From positions 1 through 11,795 of the IMG/VR virus record IMGVR_UViG_2728369560_000006: a DNA stretch of 11,795 bases; one strand, written 5' to 3'. The position numbers were made by a program, and so were the translations under genes. Source of the stretch: a virus. Taxonomy: Duplodnaviria > Heunggongvirae > Uroviricota > Caudoviricetes. Each line of letters starts with the position of its first letter. Position 1 is the stretch's first letter. Below the pieces are notes generated by a model, which had not been told where the DNA came from, searched no databases, and worked only from the letters and a program-made list of their open reading frames with translations. This document shows, in pieces, positions 1,101-6,955 of the stretch.

Positions 1101-2096
1101 TCAGGCTAGCACACCAATTGCCAACGCACGGTCGATAAAACGAAATATCAGCTCCAGCTGGGAGCCATACTTCTCTTCAAATGCCACGGTATCCGCATGC
1201 AGCTCGTCGTGATGCTTTCTGCACAAAGGCAACACAAAGAGGTCATGCGCTTTTGTACTCATTCCCCCCTGACCGTGGCCTATCAGGTGGTGGGGATCAT
1301 CAGCAGGCTTTCCACAACATGCACACGGCTGTGTCTTAACCCAGCGCGTGTACTTTTCATTAACCCAGCGGCGACGTTTGGGGCGTAACATAAAAGACTC
1401 CGGCGACTCCGGCTCCACTTTCAGCGCCAGCACCTTTTTCGCCTTATCCTGGATGATGCTGGTGGCAGGAACCGAAGGCACAAGGTCACTTTCCCGGGTA
1501 ACAGACGGCACAACAGGCTTCGGTAATCTCAGTGCCTTACGGGCTGCACTTTCCGGTAAGGCATCCGCCAGATCATTACGAATCAGCCACCAGCACAGTT
1601 CCGGCATTGTCACAACGTGACTGTCATCAAAACCGAGATCCCGACGCACAACAGACAACACCCAGCGGGCACAGTTATCCGTTGCCATTGATTCCAGCCG
1701 TTCCGTGAACTGATCGCGCAGCTGGTTATCGCAGTGCCAGCACAGACGGATTGCGCCCGGAGCGTGTCGCATTGTGGTCATGTTCTCGCTGTGCCAGTCG
1801 GAATGAGGCCACTGGCAGCCTTTTTCACGAAGTAACCAGCTTTCAAGACATTCCACGCCACCAGCACGACGGATCACTGCCTCATTGCGGAACACGGCCT
1901 GAACGGCAGGATCATCCGCCAGCGGTTGTGATGCCGCCGGAACGGCACCACTGGCGAAAGATGAATAACGTTCCGGCTCAGGCTCCAGCAGGACACGCCC
2001 CTGCATAAACAGGGGCATCAGCTCTGAACCTGGTCTGAACAATACGATCCCCATACGCGGGGCAATTTCAGGGGTCAGTAGTGCTCTCACGGTCAC
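1101..2096 (-). CDS. DUF968-family protein (YdfU-like) with C-terminal Cys/His-rich HNH-like motif
   Basis: 331 aa. C-terminal CACCGKPADDPHHLIGHG ... CRKHHDELH is a zinc-finger/HNH-like signature. Size and position (between RusA/KilA-N and Q) match DUF968 proteins of lambdoid prophages; family assignment from memory. Confidence 0.6.
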   Translation of the reverse strand: MTVRALLTPEIAPRMGIVLFRPGSELMPLFMQGRVLLEPEPERYSSFASGAVPAASQPLADDPAVQAVFRNEAVIRRAGGVECLESWLLREKGCQWPHSDWHSENMTTMRHAPGAIRLCWHCDNQLRDQFTERLESMATDNCARWVLSVVRRDLGFDDSHVVTMPELCWWLIRNDLADALPESAARKALRLPKPVVPSVTRESDLVPSVPATSIIQDKAKKVLALKVEPESPESFMLRPKRRRWVNEKYTRWVKTQPCACCGKPADDPHHLIGHGQGGMSTKAHDLFVLPLCRKHHDELHADTVAFEEKYGSQLELIFRFIDRALAIGVLA

Positions 2097-2097
2097 C

Positions 2098-2895
2098 TCA
2101 ATGAACGGTATCGAGCAGCTTTAACAGCTCAGGGAATCGGGATTCGAAGAAATGCGGCTGCGTCTCGCGCGGATTTGCAGGACTGGTGATGTTCTTGCCG
2201 AACATGCAGCCTTTCGCCGTCAGCGACCAGAATTTTTTGATGTTGTTAATCGCGGTACGGCTGTATCGTTCGCGTTGTTCAACGATCCCCAGCTTCGCCA
2301 TCTGGTGATATGCCTGATTAGCTGTCAGGCAGATACCATACTGCTTCAGCAGTGCACTCAGTGACAGCGTGGGGCGGCTTGAGCCATCAGGCGCGTCAGC
2401 AGGAGCATCAATGGCATAGCGCGGTGCCAGATTCGGTAAGCCAACAGCCTCCTGGAGTTTCTGACAGGCACCAAGCACTGAAGAGTTAGACAGGTTTAAC
2501 TCCCGGCGCATAAAGTCCAGCAGGATCACGCCAGCCTGCATCTTGTCAGCAGCCTGCCCGGATAATTTTTCCGGTGTGCTGGTTACCATATCGAAAGTAC
2601 GGATCACCTTCAGATGGAATGACGGGCTGATCCACATTGCATAGGCATACACCAGTTCTTTGCAGACATACGTCCCTTGGTTATTTCCGCCACGAATAAC
2701 GTTAACTGGCGCTATATTGACCGAGTTGCAAATCTGCAACTCGCTTATTAAACGTTCGGTTTGCTCATTGCGGAGCCAGAATGCAGGCTTATGTTTATCC
2801 AGAGAACCGGCAGCCCTGTGCAGATCGTTCAGGCTGTAACGCCCATAAGCATCACGACGAACTTCAATACCATCAATAACCATCAGATTATTCAT
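2098..2895 (-). CDS. KilA-N domain-containing protein
   Basis: 265 aa. N-terminal region (MVIDGIEVRRDAYGRYSLNDLHRAAG ... KPAFWLRNEQTERLISEL) resembles the KilA-N/APSES-type DNA-binding domain common in prophage nin regions. Tightly packed with neighbours (2 nt from DUF968 start). Confidence 0.6.
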   Translation of the reverse strand: MNNLMVIDGIEVRRDAYGRYSLNDLHRAAGSLDKHKPAFWLRNEQTERLISELQICNSVNIAPVNVIRGGNNQGTYVCKELVYAYAMWISPSFHLKVIRTFDMVTSTPEKLSGQAADKMQAGVILLDFMRRELNLSNSSVLGACQKLQEAVGLPNLAPRYAIDAPADAPDGSSRPTLSLSALLKQYGICLTANQAYHQMAKLGIVEQRERYSRTAINNIKKFWSLTAKGCMFGKNITSPANPRETQPHFFESRFPELLKLLDTVH

Positions 2896-2914
2896 ACTTC
2901 GTTTCTCCTCTTAA

Positions 2915-3304
2915 TCAGGCGGCTGCACCCGCCGGTTTCTCGTACTTACTGATAGTGATCTCGACCTTCCCTTCCGGGATAACCGGTCCCCACTCCACCA
3001 GCATTCTTTTCACCTGACTGTCGTCTTCCCACACACCCGCGTGGGTCAGGGCGTCAAACAGCGCCTTGTTATAGTTGTCCAGATCGCGGATCCGGTTATC
3101 CGGAGGAAACAACACGATCTCCACTGAAGCAGGTGCCGACGTTGGTTTTGGCAGACGACGTAACTGCTCAACTATTGCTGCACACGCCGCGCTCTGGAAT
3201 TTGCGCCCCGCCGCGCTTATCAGGCTCTTACCAGCAAACGCCCCTTTGTTGGGGTGTCGCCAGTACGTGTTCACGCTGGGCGGAAAAGGCAGGATCAGCT
3301 TCAT
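2915..3304 (-). CDS. rusA: crossover junction endodeoxyribonuclease RusA (Holliday junction resolvase)
   Basis: 129 aa. Motifs LPFPPSVNTYWRH, RDLDNYNKALFDALT and GVWEDDSQV match the RusA family, including the catalytic Asp cluster. Start overlaps the stop of the upstream gene (3301-3304). Confidence 0.85.
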   Translation of the reverse strand: MKLILPFPPSVNTYWRHPNKGAFAGKSLISAAGRKFQSAACAAIVEQLRRLPKPTSAPASVEIVLFPPDNRIRDLDNYNKALFDALTHAGVWEDDSQVKRMLVEWGPVIPEGKVEITISKYEKPAGAAA

Positions 3305-3627
3305 ACTTTCAGGCCCCTCTCATGTAACCAGTGGGCTGCACGCAGCCTGGCGTTTTCCTCACCGGCAAGCAGTGAGCGGATAATCCCGACCGCCTCGCTG
3401 TCGTCGTCCTTCACCGCGGTATGAAGCGTTATCCCCCGTGCCACGCCACGCTTTATCGTGATGACGCCTTTTTTCTCCAGTGCGCGAAGATGCTCCACCG
3501 CTGCATTCACTGAACGGTATCCCAGCATGGTAGCCACCTCCTGATTGGTTGGCGGGAAGCCACGTTCTTTCTGATAAGAAATCAGCATATCCAGCACCTG
3601 CTGCTGGCATTGAGTTAATGTCGTCAT
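3301..3627 (-). CDS. LexA N-terminal DNA-binding-domain protein (winged-helix only; no S24 peptidase domain)
   Basis: 108 aa. LTQCQQQVLDMLISYQKERGFPPTNQEVATMLGYRSVNAAVEHLRALEKKGVITIKRGVARGITL aligns closely by eye with the E. coli LexA N-terminal domain (LTARQQEVFDLI...[36 protein letters not shown]...SRGIRL). The protein ends about 40 aa later with no Ala-Gly/Ser/Lys peptidase region. Confidence 0.7.
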   Translation of the reverse strand: MTTLTQCQQQVLDMLISYQKERGFPPTNQEVATMLGYRSVNAAVEHLRALEKKGVITIKRGVARGITLHTAVKDDDSEAVGIIRSLLAGEENARLRAAHWLHERGLKV

Positions 3628-4310
3628 GCCGCCATCTCCCTGACCAGTTTTTCCGCCTGCTGGCGAACCTGCGCCAGAAACGCCTCACCACATGTCTCAA
3701 GTTCATCGCGCCCGATGTAGCTGATTGCCGGTCCCTTCCAGGTCTTATCGAAAACAGCAATAGCACCAGCGAAGAACGCTCCTGTCGGCACCTGCTTCTC
3801 GTCTTTCGGGATAAACCAGACAGGCAGTTCAAAACCAATACGCCCGCGAATAAAAGCAATATGGTCTGCATCTTCCGGCCACCACACTTCGCTGGTGGCA
3901 GCTTTGATCAGGAAAACATAGCGCCCGCCTTTATCACGCATGGCACTGGCATGCTTCATGATGTAACGCATGCCGGTGATGTATTGCCCCTCATGCTGAC
4001 TGGCGCGGCTGTATGGGGGATTACCAAAGGCAGCACCTTTAAGCTCCGCAAGACGTTCTGACCAGTCATGCGCCAGCGCGTTGTCTTCCGCCGTGTAATA
4101 CGCGGCACATTTGGCGTTATCACCGTCAGTGAACAGATCCAGAACAAACGGACCAAACAGGGTGTTAATTCCCCAGAAAATGTTATCCGGCGTGCGCCAC
4201 TGATCTCCCACTTCCTTCAGTTCATGGGCTGGTTTATTCCGCAGTTCCACCAGCGCCTGGCAATATTTATTACTCATTAAGCCCCCACGTAATTCCCTGA
4301 CAGATACCAC
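3624..4310 (-). CDS. phage DNA N6-adenine methyltransferase (Dam family, orphan)
   Basis: Contains the (D/N)PPY motif IV (FGNPPYS) typical of N6-adenine/N4-cytosine methyltransferases, with no adjacent restriction gene. Start is uncertain: the ORF track gives 4310, but an internal ATG at about 4277 (MSNKYCQ...) forms a TAATG overlap with the upstream gene's stop and may be the true start. Confidence 0.7.
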   Translation of the reverse strand: MVSVRELRGGLMSNKYCQALVELRNKPAHELKEVGDQWRTPDNIFWGINTLFGPFVLDLFTDGDNAKCAAYYTAEDNALAHDWSERLAELKGAAFGNPPYSRASQHEGQYITGMRYIMKHASAMRDKGGRYVFLIKAATSEVWWPEDADHIAFIRGRIGFELPVWFIPKDEKQVPTGAFFAGAIAVFDKTWKGPAISYIGRDELETCGEAFLAQVRQQAEKLVREMAA

Positions 4311-4771
4311 TCTTCACCCGATGCAGCGCGCTTGCTGCTTTTCCGTAAGCACCGCTCACGACGCGCCAGAAAATTGTTTCGTTCTGGCTGGGAGTGGCTT
4401 TCACGGAATGCCGCCATCCACACGGTTGCAGCACGACGGTATAAGCCCCTTGACTCCAGTTCTTCCGCCTGGCGGGTCAGGCACAAAATCACCCGGGGAT
4501 CGTTAGTGCCGACATAGAAATTGCGCGCAGGTCTGGTTTCACGAACTGGTTGTGGTTCCGGCTCCTGCGCTCTCTCAGTCAGGCGCGGGAAATGTCTGCG
4601 TGTATCCCCTTCATAACGGTGAGCCACACGCCCACTCTGACGTAACTTGCTTGCTGACTGCAGAACGCGCTGCCGTGAGTAACCAGCAAAAGCATCCGCA
4701 ATGTCTCCGGAAGTACACCCCGGATGGGCTTCAATGAATTTCTGAACGTCATTTAACAGACTCATGATCAC
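4277..4771 (-). CDS. PerC-family-like putative transcriptional regulator
   Basis: 164 aa. C-terminal region carries GLYRRAATVWMAAF ... ARRERCLRK, resembling the GLWRRAA..W hallmark of PerC/Pch regulators (from memory). Start overlaps the O-like gene stop (4768-4771). Confidence 0.45.
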   Translation of the reverse strand: MIMSLLNDVQKFIEAHPGCTSGDIADAFAGYSRQRVLQSASKLRQSGRVAHRYEGDTRRHFPRLTERAQEPEPQPVRETRPARNFYVGTNDPRVILCLTRQAEELESRGLYRRAATVWMAAFRESHSQPERNNFLARRERCLRKSSKRAASGEEWYLSGNYVGA

Positions 4772-5709
4772 CCCCTGAATCCTGCCGGGATCTGGCTGTA
4801 GTCCACGTTGTCGTAACTGGATTTGAAGTACGGGTCTTCGCGTTTTTCGGTGTACGTGCTTACGGACGGCGATAAGCGCAGGGAAAGCTCATCCCATTTT
4901 TCCCGCAGCTTCGACGGGCTGAGCACGTTACGGCACCAGAACGGATCGCGGCTGACGCGGCTGTACATCTCGCAGATTTGTTTGTGAGTACGACCATCCT
5001 GCACACACATCAGGCGAATTTCGTTTGCCCAGGCTGTCCAGTTCGGTTCTTTGGGACGAACCACCTCGCCGTCACATTCGGCGGCCTGCTCGTACAGGGC
5101 GATGATTTTTTTCCAGAGCCACTGTGCGCAGGTCAAATCATCCTGCGTTCCCCACTGGCGCTTTTTAGGGCTGAATACAACCGCATCAGGATGGCGAGTT
5201 AAAAAATCCTGTTCATCCGTCTGCGTGTCCGGTTGCGAAGCGTCCGGACGAGAAGTTTTTTTATCTGACGGATCATGTTTTGATTTTACTGACGGATCCC
5301 CGCCAGATTCTGACGGGTGAAAACCCGCTTTTTTGCCAGATTTCGACGCATCAAATTTTGACGGGTCAGATTTTGATGCGTCAGATTTTGACGGGTCAGA
5401 ATCTGACAGTTGAGAAAATGCCGCTGCCTGAAGCTTCGCAACGTTAAGCTGATAAACATTCGACGCATTGCGGTTACCCTGGCGACGCGCCTTACGCGTT
5501 AACCAGCCTTCTGCTTCCAGCCGTGCGATAGCCGTTCTGACGGTACTCATCCCCGCGCCAATCTGGCGGGCAATGGTTTCAATTGATGGCCAGCACACAC
5601 CTTCGTCATTACTGAAATCAGCCAGGCGGGCCATAATTGCCACGCTGGATAATTTCATGCCTGATGCAGCGCAACTATCCCATACATAGCCGGTTAATTT
5701 AGTGCTCAT
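4768..5709 (-). CDS. phage replication initiation protein (O-like: N-terminal wHTH domain, repeat-encoded linker, C-terminal domain)
   Basis: 313 aa. N-terminal HTH region (SIETIARQIGAGMSTVRTAIARLEAEGWL), low-complexity linker SDSDPSKSDASKSDPSKFDASKSG encoded by tandem 15-bp DNA repeats (lambda O-like architecture with ori inside the gene), and a C-terminal domain. SD GAGG about 6 nt upstream of the ATG. Confidence 0.7.
   Translation of the reverse strand: MSTKLTGYVWDSCAASGMKLSSVAIMARLADFSNDEGVCWPSIETIARQIGAGMSTVRTAIARLEAEGWLTRKARRQGNRNASNVYQLNVAKLQAAAFSQLSDSDPSKSDASKSDPSKFDASKSGKKAGFHPSESGGDPSVKSKHDPSDKKTSRPDASQPDTQTDEQDFLTRHPDAVVFSPKKRQWGTQDDLTCAQWLWKKIIALYEQAAECDGEVVRPKEPNWTAWANEIRLMCVQDGRTHKQICEMYSRVSRDPFWCRNVLSPSKLREKWDELSLRLSPSVSTYTEKREDPYFKSSYDNVDYSQIPAGFRG
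5281..5410. repeat. iteron array (candidate phage origin of replication inside the initiator gene)
   Basis: About 7 copies of a 15-bp unit (plus-strand consensus TCAGATTTTGACGGG). Copies at about 5336-5410 are in perfect 15-bp phase (CCAGATTTCGACGCA, TCAAATTTTGACGGG, TCAGATTTTGATGCG, TCAGATTTTGACGGG, TCAGAATCTGACAGT), with further copies at about 5282-5318. A/T-rich patches lie immediately to the left. Confidence 0.65.
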
Positions 5710-5718
5710 GACCGACCT

Positions 5719-6057
5719 CTATTTCCCTGAATTTACGACGAAACTGTTCGAGCGGGCTGAAGCACTCATGCTCATAGCCTTCGCGGAGGTAGATAACCCG
5801 TTGTGTTTCCGGCTCCCAACGAATGACTCTGACGGGCACTCCGTAGTGATCTTTGAACCAGCGGTTAACTTGTCGCAAAGGACTGTCTCCTTCTGCCGGT
5901 TGAAATCACCCACAGCCCACTCTGCAAAGCTGTGGGTTACAATTTCCCTGTCACCTGGTACATTTACTGCATAGCAATACTCCACCTTCGCTTTTCCACC
6001 CGGTACAGGAAGCGCAATCAGTTGCGAGCGACGGTAGTGTGTTGTTAAACTGTTCAT
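5719..6057 (-). CDS. hypothetical protein (small ORF between CII-like and O-like genes)
   Basis: 112 aa. Same strand as the operon, start overlaps the CII-like stop (6054-6057), SD-like GGAG upstream. Against: low-complexity C-terminus, no recognisable family, and a strong 9-bp hairpin (about 5908-5937) inside the ORF. Confidence 0.35.
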
Positions 6058-6605
6058 GCGTTAGTTTCTCCACAGTCACGACACGCCACGGCGCCCGGAG
6101 CTGCACACTCGCGGGCGTCATTACTTTCTGAAATGCAAAAAATTTTGTAGACCAGTGCTGCATGCTCCTGCAGCTTCGAAATTGAGAGGTACAGCTCGTC
6201 GTTAATTGCTGTCTTCTCATGCGGTTCCACTACACCGTCTTCAATTGCTGAACGAATCTGTTTTGAATAACTGCCGATCTGTTCAATGACTTCCAGCAGG
6301 CGCTGGTTAATATCGGCGTTGTCCACATCCTCGACGTCAGGAAGAGACACAAAGACGCCATTTGCAGACTGCGCCACAGCGTCAGCAATGAAGTGAGTTC
6401 CACCAGCACGTTGCAAAATCATTGCCCATCCCAGCGGGAAAATCTGATCGCCATCGGCACGAAGGCGGTTAAATAATGCGTTCTCTGTTACATCCAGCCA
6501 GTCAGCAGCTTCAGCGTACCCCCCCGGCAACGCTGCGATAGTTTTTCTGACAGCTTTCACGTACCACTCAGGCTGTTTTTCTACTTTCCAGTGATGCTTA
6601 CCCAC
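6054..6605 (-). CDS. CII-like / YdaT-family phage regulatory protein
   Basis: 183 aa, directly downstream of the cro-like gene with overlapping start/stop, the canonical cII position. Size and position fit the roughly 180-aa CII(CP76)/YdaT-type proteins of enterobacterial prophages; family call is positional plus weak memory. Confidence 0.5.
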
Positions 6606-6858
6606 GGTTCACCTCCTGTTCCTGTGGTTTAAACCCATTCTGGTTTTGGCTAGATTGAAAACGTGCCGGATAAAGAATCTGCATTTCGCTGACTTCACCC
6701 TTAAAAAAATTGGCTAAACGTTCTGCAAGCTCGATAGATGGAATCTGCTCCAGCCTCTCAATACGACTCAACGTCGCTGGATTGACTTGAACACCCGCAG
6801 CAACATGCTGCAAAGTGAAACCATGCGCCTTACGCACATTTCGTAATGGTGATTGCAT
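6598..6858 (-). CDS. cro: Cro-like HTH (XRE family) transcriptional regulator
   Basis: 86 aa with a clear HTH (FTLQHVAAGVQVNPATLSRIERLE). Divergent from the CI-type repressor gene across a 97-bp operator region. Strong SD (GGAGGTC) upstream of the ATG. Confidence 0.8.
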   Translation of the reverse strand: MQSPLRNVRKAHGFTLQHVAAGVQVNPATLSRIERLEQIPSIELAERLANFFKGEVSEMQILYPARFQSSQNQNGFKPQEQEVNRG

Positions 6859-6955
6859 ATGACCTCCAAATATTGCGCGTTATGCATGTTATTTCACGCA
6901 ATTATTTTGCGCAAGTTGATTTGCTTATCACGCAATAAAGAAATGTAATAAACGC
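6859..6955. promoter_or_regulatory. immunity region OR: divergent pR/pRM promoters with repeated TTGC-N7-GCAA operator sites
   Basis: Repeated half-sites TTGCG/CGCAA: TTGCGCGTTATGCAT (about 6873-6887), ACGCAATTATTTTGCGCAA (about 6895-6915), TTGCTTATCACGCAA (about 6921-6935). Candidate pRM -35 TTGCTT / -10 TGTAAT ending about 7 nt before the cI ATG (leaderless-type cI mRNA, as in lambda). Candidate pR on the minus strand within the same interval. Confidence 0.55.

Follow-up and report, generated by a model that had tools for sequence, protein, structure and literature searches.

This analysis concerns a replication initiator gene and the repeat array inside it, both on the minus strand of a window of 11,795 nucleotides (the whole stretch of viral DNA that was analysed, IMG/VR record IMGVR_UViG_2728369560_000006). 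The DNA belongs to a lambdoid prophage of the e14/SfII/LLS type, whose immunity and early region it represents, with the early-right operon on the minus strand; positions 4200-6700 match Shigella phages SfII and SfIV at 98% identity and several temperate phages of E. coli at 97-98%. The initiator family is very common in prophages of Enterobacterales (more than 2300 database homologues), its members including SfII, SfIV, LLS, the e14 and CPS-53 remnants and the Rac relatives, and it is usually annotated merely as 'helix-turn-helix domain-containing protein'. The gene and the elements within it are as follows.

4768-5709, minus strand: initiator gene, 313 residues, full-length match to phrog_391 'replication initiation O-like' (E 2e-135)
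5416-5709, minus strand: N-terminal winged-helix domain (residues 1-98), modelled with confidence by AlphaFold2, the presumed iteron-binding module
5227-5415, minus strand: linker coding region (residues 99-161), peptide predicted disordered (AlphaFold2 predicted local distance difference test, pLDDT, 33-43 over residues 103-161)
4876-5226, minus strand: lambda O-like C-terminal domain (residues 162-278), predicted helical (AlphaFold2 pLDDT 81-95)
4771-4875, minus strand: tail (residues 279-313), disordered in the AlphaFold2 model
4771-4791, minus strand: C-terminal motif IPAGFRG (residues 307-313), matching the DnaT motif IPxGFRG
5335-5407, minus strand: iterons 1-5 together (Tandem Repeats Finder, motif counts and family logo)
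5395-5407, minus strand: iteron 1, GTCAGATTCTGAC
5380-5392, minus strand: iteron 2, GTCAAAATCTGAC
5365-5377, minus strand: iteron 3, ATCAAAATCTGAC
5350-5362, minus strand: iteron 4, GTCAAAATTTGAT
5335-5347, minus strand: iteron 5, GTCGAAATCTGGC
5302-5314, minus strand: iteron 6, GTCAGAATCTGGC, 33 bp from iteron 5 (a distal copy at 33 or 48 nt recurs across loci)
5250-5299, no strand: A+T-rich patch, G+C 30-37%, with two direct repeats GATCCGTCAG (5289-5298 and 5265-5274), a candidate DNA-unwinding element

Tandem Repeats Finder reported 4.3 copies of a 15-nt period with 81% matches at 5337-5400 (and also a period of 30, with 88%). The 15-mer GACCCGTCAAAATCT, with up to three mismatches, occurs six times in the window, all at 5305-5404, where 0.27 copies are expected and 0 of 200 shuffles reached six; neither search found a comparable repeat family elsewhere in the window. 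Read on the minus (coding) strand the array is in frame, giving QLSDS-DPSKS-DASKS-DPSKF-DASKS. Its consensus is a 13-bp dyad, GTCA-R-A-W-TCTGAC, with iterons 1-5 spaced exactly 15 bp from centre to centre and with iterons 1 and 6 forming perfect or near-perfect palindromes. The six iterons lie within codons 101-136, in a disordered segment (residues 103-161 of an AlphaFold2 model built from 30 homologues) that coincides exactly with the part encoded by the repeats. An earlier reading of this DNA (the original prediction) had described five tandem and two degenerate copies encoding in frame an SDxSK peptide, and repeat finding, unit search and coding-strand reading all bear this out; the feature occupies about 5250-5407, a little more than the 5281-5410 given there, and half-copies of the unit, GATCCGTCAG, lie in the A+T-rich patch. 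A terminator-like hairpin (CGGGTGAAAACCCG, then CTTTTTTGCC) lies on the plus strand at 5314-5327, between iterons 5 and 6 and antisense to the initiator gene; it is not kept in the Klebsiella homologue and is probably incidental.

The DNA of the linker is constrained beyond what its peptide demands. When the window gene was compared by codon column with those of Klebsiella phage Kp4878-1, Escherichia phage Phi06_2987 and Citrobacter phage phiNP, columns with an invariant amino acid showed synonymous change at 59 of 70 positions in the N-domain (84%) and at only 8 of 35 in the linker (23%), Fisher p = 9e-10, a value that overstates independence because the loci are related. Nucleotide identity is accordingly higher in the linker (81-89%) than in the N-domain (76-78%), whereas amino-acid identity runs the other way (69-82% vs. 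87-88%), and around iteron 6 the codons are conserved in all four of these diverged homologues. A scan of species-representative genomes yielded 76 loci across Enterobacterales, with N-domain identities of 68-99%, and all complete genes among them carried the SDxSK repeats followed by GFHPSESGGDPSV. The family logo combines 418 sites, 4-10 from each of 69 distinct loci, with 15-nt spacing in 256 cases. In 68 genes taken with no motif-based selection, serine codons in the linker were TCA or TCT in 81% of cases, compared with 39% outside it, AGC serine fell to 4% from 27%, and lysine was AAA in 98% against 67% (chi-square 410). The one pentapeptide residue that varies (P/A/T/G) has its codon in the spacer separating the dyads, and in Pantoea the peptide shifts (K to E, N or D) while the DNA remains within TCA-R-A-W-TCTGA. 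These observations support the view that the repeats work in cis as DNA, in the part of an O-like initiator gene that encodes the linker between its domains. Two other sources of conservation were rejected: an overlapping open reading frame, the sole alternative frame ever open being open in just 28 of 68 loci, and a known RNA family, for which a single far-subthreshold match to a eukaryotic microRNA family is explained by the palindromes.

Positions 5250-5299, which adjoin iteron 6, are the most A+T-rich stretch of the initiator gene, and when 72 homologous genes were scanned, the 36 nt richest in A+T began just past the distal site in 87.5% of them. GATC is concentrated there, at 21 per kb vs. 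4.75 per kb gene-wide in the same 72 genes (4.4-fold). The GATC-containing direct repeats GATCCGTCAG are also present in a Rac-type homologue, and the gene seen most often immediately downstream of these initiators encodes a DNA methyltransferase; the origin could conceivably be under methylation control. The best local match to lambda ori pairs 5253-5300 with lambda 39140-39170 (L167:541-571) through an A-rich stretch and CGTCAGA, with 23 of 30 positions identical and 4 of 500 shuffles as good, and the right arm of the lambda site, CGTCAGAGAATTCTGGCGAATCC, resembles CCGTCAGAATCTGGCGGGGATCC of the window; the significance of both likenesses is marginal.

The arrangement is that of lambda ori within O. 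In both, the repeats lie mid-gene in the segment for the linker between a DNA-binding N-domain and a C-domain, the sites are dyad-symmetric, and an A+T-rich region follows them as the gene is read. The initiator and lambda O are homologous in their C-domains: BLASTP aligned residues 70-277 at 31% identity (E 4e-26), beginning no earlier than residue 70, and tblastn aligned residues 131-277 at 35.6% identity (E 1e-18), while no Pfam model matched this domain. The N-domain is different, being Pfam HTH_36 (PF13730, residues 23-70, plus related winged helices) with no detectable homology to lambda O; Pfam found no Phage_rep_O (PF04492) match in the initiator at E <= 0.01. It resembles MarR/ArsR/Crp winged helices and the N-domain of DnaD, and a sequence search of the PDB with the initiator gave weak MarR-type matches only, to this domain. 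The label 'O-like' given in the original prediction is therefore right for the C-domain and wrong for the N-domain, and a likeness it drew between the repeat unit and the lambda iteron core is superficial: lambda has four 18-bp TCCCTC..GAGGGA dyads at 20-24 bp, the window six 13-bp GTCAGA.TCTGAC dyads, five of them at 15 bp, and the 'CC' that was compared belongs to the variable spacer here. The ori-within-O architecture that it proposed is, to judge by linker position, DNA-level constraint and the A+T-rich patch after the sites, probably the correct one.

Iteron plasmids such as pSC101, RK2, F and P1 offer a second comparison. Their origins likewise place repeated initiator-binding sites beside an A+T-rich region, and a winged-helix Rep protein recruits host DnaB-DnaC without a plasmid-encoded loader; the window shares the direct repeats, the A+T-rich neighbour, a winged-helix initiator and the lack of a loader of its own. 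The plasmid iterons differ in being about 17-22 bp long, spaced by about 22 bp and intergenic, their Rep proteins have tandem WH1-WH2 domains, and DnaA boxes are usually needed; none of these traits was seen here, where no test was aimed at them.

Relatives of the initiator show that its N-domain and the repeats travel together. The pair occurs on two unrelated C-domains, the lambda O-like one and Phg_2220_C (PF09524), the latter in LLS gp44, which otherwise shares with the window the N-domain, the repeat-linker DNA, the GFRG ending and the standing of sole replication gene in a Chi-rich phage with no recombination (Rec) module. In the Rac prophage (ydaU-ydaV, oriJ), a diverged HTH_36 N-domain goes with different dyads, TCAA-NNN-TTGA, in the same linker position and at the same 15-nt period, together with a lambda O-like C-domain and an IPPGFRG end; this type differs also in having a DnaC/IstB-like loader gene of its own downstream. 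The SfV gene orf39 (L168:2778-3596) combines another HTH_36 N-domain with another C-domain and no loader gene, its linker repeats having a period of 21-24 nt (L168:3063-3148). Such co-inheritance and co-variation of a DNA-binding domain with the adjacent repeats is as expected of an initiator-origin pair. Plasmids based on oriJ replicate (Potrykus et al. 2000, as cited in PMC11014345); in the literature we found no nucleotide-level map of oriJ, and nothing on an origin of SfII, SfIV or SfV.

Several variant loci were also seen (L025, L032, L037, L031, L015, L138, L158, L160 and L161). Near-identical prophages carry one additional array unit (318 residues) or two (323 residues), one copy is frameshifted (145 residues), e14 ymfN-type fusions join the first 79 residues to another open reading frame (455 residues), and yfdO-like 3' remnants retain the tail. 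Contigs titled Vagococcus sp., Chryseobacterium sp. and Martelella alba (L093, L119 and L121) hold this enterobacterial prophage module at 81-89% identity and are likely assembly contamination.

We infer that the N-domain binds the iterons. On the sequence evidence the element is very probably an iteron origin of lambda design, placed inside the initiator gene, with a DNA-binding domain not homologous to that of lambda O, with sites that differ and are packed more closely, and without a loader; we consider it likely, with few reservations, that 5250-5407 is the replication origin of the SfII/LLS-type prophage and that replication would fire there.

The main genes around the initiator gene are listed here, with the exception of those treated further below.

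6956-7648, plus strand: cI
6598-6858, minus strand: cro
6054-6605, minus strand: YmfL/CII-like gene
5719-6057, minus strand: YmfM-like gene (phrog_1170), 112 residues, function unknown, just upstream of the initiator gene
4277-4771, minus strand: PerC/YfdN-like gene (Pfam PerC), overlapping the initiator stop codon by 4 nt
3624-4310: Dam / DNA methyltransferase gene

Further genes of the window encode a LexA DNA-binding-domain protein, RusA, KilA-N, DUF968/HNH and Q, and the right end carries an integrase gene. Neither in the operon nor in the rest of the window was a helicase or loader gene found, and no helicase, loader or primase is annotated in the complete 41.5-kb genome of SfII. Phage LLS, whose gp44 belongs to the same initiator family with the same repeat DNA and GFRG end, is in the same position: the accessible text of Zheng et al. 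(Genome Res 2025, PMC12315714) reports that it has an O homologue only, that 34 of 314 lambdoid phages are alike in this and that their replication 'is not yet understood'; it notes the missing loader, and in that text neither an origin nor the DnaT-like tail is described. LLS plates on E. coli K-12, is Chi-rich and without a Rec module, and has its growth enhanced by RecBCD. A phage with this initiator and neither helicase nor loader must recruit the host helicase in another way.

The original prediction had taken the next gene for a PerC-like regulator and had found no helicase or loader downstream, concluding that the host helicase would be recruited by another route and that the C-terminal region deserved a search for DnaT-like features. 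All of this agrees with what we found: the PerC-like protein matches PF06069 at residues 100-151 with 36.2 bits (Pfam gathering score 22.6) and phrog_1324 'transcriptional activator' over its full length, a loader is lacking in the operon, in the complete, 98%-identical SfII genome and in LLS, the need for another route follows from that lack, and the initiator ends in the C-terminal motif of DnaT, with the qualification that the DnaT domain PF17948 itself is not matched.

The initiator ends in SQIPAGFRG and E. coli DnaT (primosomal protein i) in SQIPPGFRG, so that eight of nine residues are identical at the extreme C-terminus of both, and in each protein the motif follows a segment that varies and is presumably flexible. 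Across 105 DnaT orthologues I-P-x-G-F-R-G stays essentially invariant and the preceding 20 residues are variable, as is typical of short linear docking motifs. The likeness is confined to the tail. PF17948, the single-stranded-DNA-binding C-terminal domain of DnaT, was found neither in the initiator nor in its C-terminal half (E. coli DnaT as control, E 3.7e-21), BLASTP aligned the tail alone, and the initiator shows no likeness to the N-terminal oligomerisation domain or the acidic PriB-binding linker of DnaT. DnaT acts, and the initiator is proposed to act, upstream of DnaB-DnaC loading, with the difference that DnaT joins a fork-bound complex and the initiator would recognise specific duplex DNA. 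The GFRG ending is common to initiators with lambda O-like, Phg_2220_C and SfV-type C-domains, and PHROGs also holds phage initiators that have the DnaT C-terminal domain together with the tail.

All collected loci were classed by the ending of the initiator and by the loader genes nearby, P-like sequence being sought by tblastn, which found none in the window.

GFR tail (129 loci): lambda P nearby in 0, DnaC-like gene nearby in 2, neither in 127
Lambda-type tail (2 loci): lambda P nearby in 2, DnaC-like gene nearby in 0, neither in 0
WxxIW ending (23 loci): lambda P nearby in 0, DnaC-like gene nearby in 0, neither in 23

Lambda O itself ends in ...TDWIYGVDL and is followed by the P gene, and the two initiators with a lambda-type tail, both from Pantoea, keep the same N-domain and lambda O-like C-domain as the window, end in ..TDWIYGIEE.. 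and are each followed by lambda P. Of the two genome loci whose initiators end otherwise, one has P downstream (L126) and the other a DnaC/IstB-like gene (L130). Rac-type initiators, with their IPPGFRG end, have a DnaC-like gene after them, an arrangement like that of dnaT and dnaC in the host operon. A rule that the GFRG tail means no loader was dropped on this counter-example and revised to the statement that the GFRG tail is never paired with P.

In the mechanism we propose, dimers of the N-domain would bind the six 13-bp dyad iterons, five at 15-bp spacing and one 33 bp further; the nucleoprotein complex would open the adjacent A+T-rich, GATC-bearing patch; and the C-terminal half of the initiator (the lambda O-like helical domain plus the disordered IPAGFRG tail) would bring in host DnaB-DnaC, the tail docking on DnaT's helicase-loading partner, most likely DnaC or DnaB-DnaC, alternatively PriA or PriB. 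Taken whole, an origin in the linker-coding segment with tail-based helicase recruitment strikes us as probable on balance. That the DnaT-like tail may be the recruitment device, and so may account for the missing loader, is a tentative proposal on which we are nearly evenly divided. The wider idea that IPxGFRG is a portable docking peptide for enterobacterial helicase loading (most simply through DnaC or DnaB-DnaC), common to host DnaT and to phage initiators with at least three unrelated C-domains, and that phages carrying it dispense with P and hijack host DnaB-DnaC at an iteron origin, is offered more tentatively still.

Several points weigh against these proposals. For an iteron origin, 15 bp is an unusual spacing. 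The loci share ancestry, and those from IMG/VR (80) are almost identical to one another, so that statistical support is overstated; the effects are nonetheless large and extend over many genera. The last 33 residues of SfV orf39, IPAGFRG included, are those of the window initiator, and part of this sharing could stem from a mosaic recombination junction with the module downstream. Twenty-three related, loader-less initiators have no GFRG tail and bear a different extension, so the tail is not the sole loader-less solution. As far as the literature was accessible we found no description of a function for the DnaT tail. The preprimosome cryo-electron microscopy report has the C-terminal domain of DnaT built from residues 84-153 only, for which reason the tail is absent from the model, and its authors call the recruitment of DnaB/DnaC unknown and favour the DnaT N-domain. 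With the function of the tail undescribed, we infer its partner from elsewhere: gene neighbourhoods fit DnaC or DnaB-DnaC best, with PriA or PriB as the alternative.

The WxxIW initiators (L099, L100, L104, L122-L124, L134-L137, L142-L153 and L159) are 297-374 residues long, mostly 335-351, and their extension of about 50 residues has a conserved W-x-x-I-W (e.g., ..RWNAIWKEQAQRG..); their hosts are mostly Yersinia, Rahnella, Ewingella, Erwinia, Proteus, Providencia and Buttiauxella. Vibrio phage K71 (L170:2605-3534) has an HTH_36-like N-domain, a lambda O-like C-domain and, in place of GFRG, an acidic end, ..DFSDDSEGDPQFRF. The clade of its host uses DciA, not DnaC. The acidic end recalls SSB-type acidic tips and may be a docking tail specific to that host clade.

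The alternative that survives best keeps the origin and changes the route: the tail would recruit PriA and/or PriB, or the initiator would only open the origin or form an R- or D-loop, with loading through PriA-PriB-DnaT as in ColE1-type plasmids and Mu. DnaT does work within the PriA-PriB-DnaT preprimosome, and a Chi-rich prophage class without a Rec module, with growth of LLS enhanced by RecBCD, would fit a reliance on host recombination and restart. The window itself has eight Chi sites (GCTGGTGG) in 11.8 kb (1458-9847) where 0.39 are expected, six of the eight on the minus strand, and no Rec module in its early-left region, which assigns the prophage to the class described for LLS. In the cryo-electron microscopy structure, however, DnaT contacts PriA through its helical C-terminal domain and PriB through its acidic linker, and the phage protein has neither; moreover, the Rac-type relative pairs the same tail with a DnaC-like gene of its own, a better fit to a loader as partner. 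We regard this alternative as unlikely.

Improbable, in our view, is a phage loader that went unrecognised, namely the YmfM-like protein or the N-terminal half of the PerC/YfdN-like protein, with the GFRG tail binding that protein or being irrelevant. Small non-AAA+ loaders exist, lambda P being the textbook case, parts of both candidates have no assigned function, 51 of 66 loci have the YmfM-like gene upstream, and the 4-nt overlap of the PerC-like gene with the initiator stop, a possible translational coupling, recalls that of P with O. Yet the PerC-like gene (cluster C3, 19 open reading frames) is the first downstream gene in just 17 of about 65 loci, the YmfM-like gene stands beside a true lambda P in L126, and phiNP, LLS, L087 and L154 are without one or both genes though tail-bearing and loader-less. 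As neither gene is universal, both were rejected as obligatory partners of the initiator, and the presence of the tail motif in a host protein suggests that its partner, too, is a host protein. Another neighbour, at 3301-3627 on the minus strand, encodes a 108-residue protein that is a LexA DNA-binding domain alone (Pfam E 2.9e-19), without the S24 peptidase domain; this gene is kept downstream in many related loci, in some of them fused to RusA (cluster C2).

It is possible to accept binding by the N-domain and to read the sites as operators, serving autoregulation, handcuffing copy control or incompatibility, and to place the origin elsewhere. Typical MarR/ArsR-type winged helices are palindrome-binding repressors, and plasmid iterons are known from textbooks to serve copy control as well. 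Against this, the sites lie some 300 nt into the gene and not at a promoter, and no internal promoter or promoter-like site was found in the array region; a conserved A+T-rich patch with GATC repeats abuts the array, the window offers no second repeat family of the kind, and the layout matches the annotated lambda ori. We therefore think operators alone distinctly improbable. Very improbable is a slippage-prone, low-complexity coding expansion of a Ser/Asp/Lys linker whose DNA has no role in cis, for while the peptide is predicted disordered, such linkers are common and copy number differs by one or two units among near-identical prophages, the linker's synonymous sites are far more conserved than those of the N-domain although its peptide is less so, codon choice is extreme (lysine nearly always AAA, AGC serine almost absent), dyad symmetry and 15-nt spacing are fixed across genera, and a non-repeated flanking block is likewise codon-conserved.

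An origin inside the initiator gene is textbook knowledge for lambda, and the array alone would be an uncharacterised member of a known design; what changes is that the origin of this widespread family can now, as predicted from sequence, be stated to the nucleotide. The docking-peptide proposal addresses two gaps, the replication of O-only phages (Zheng et al. 2025) and a second one left by Ducos et al. If true, it would explain how 'O-only' lambdoid phages replicate, and IPxGFRG would be the element by which DnaT hands the preprimosome to DnaB-DnaC.

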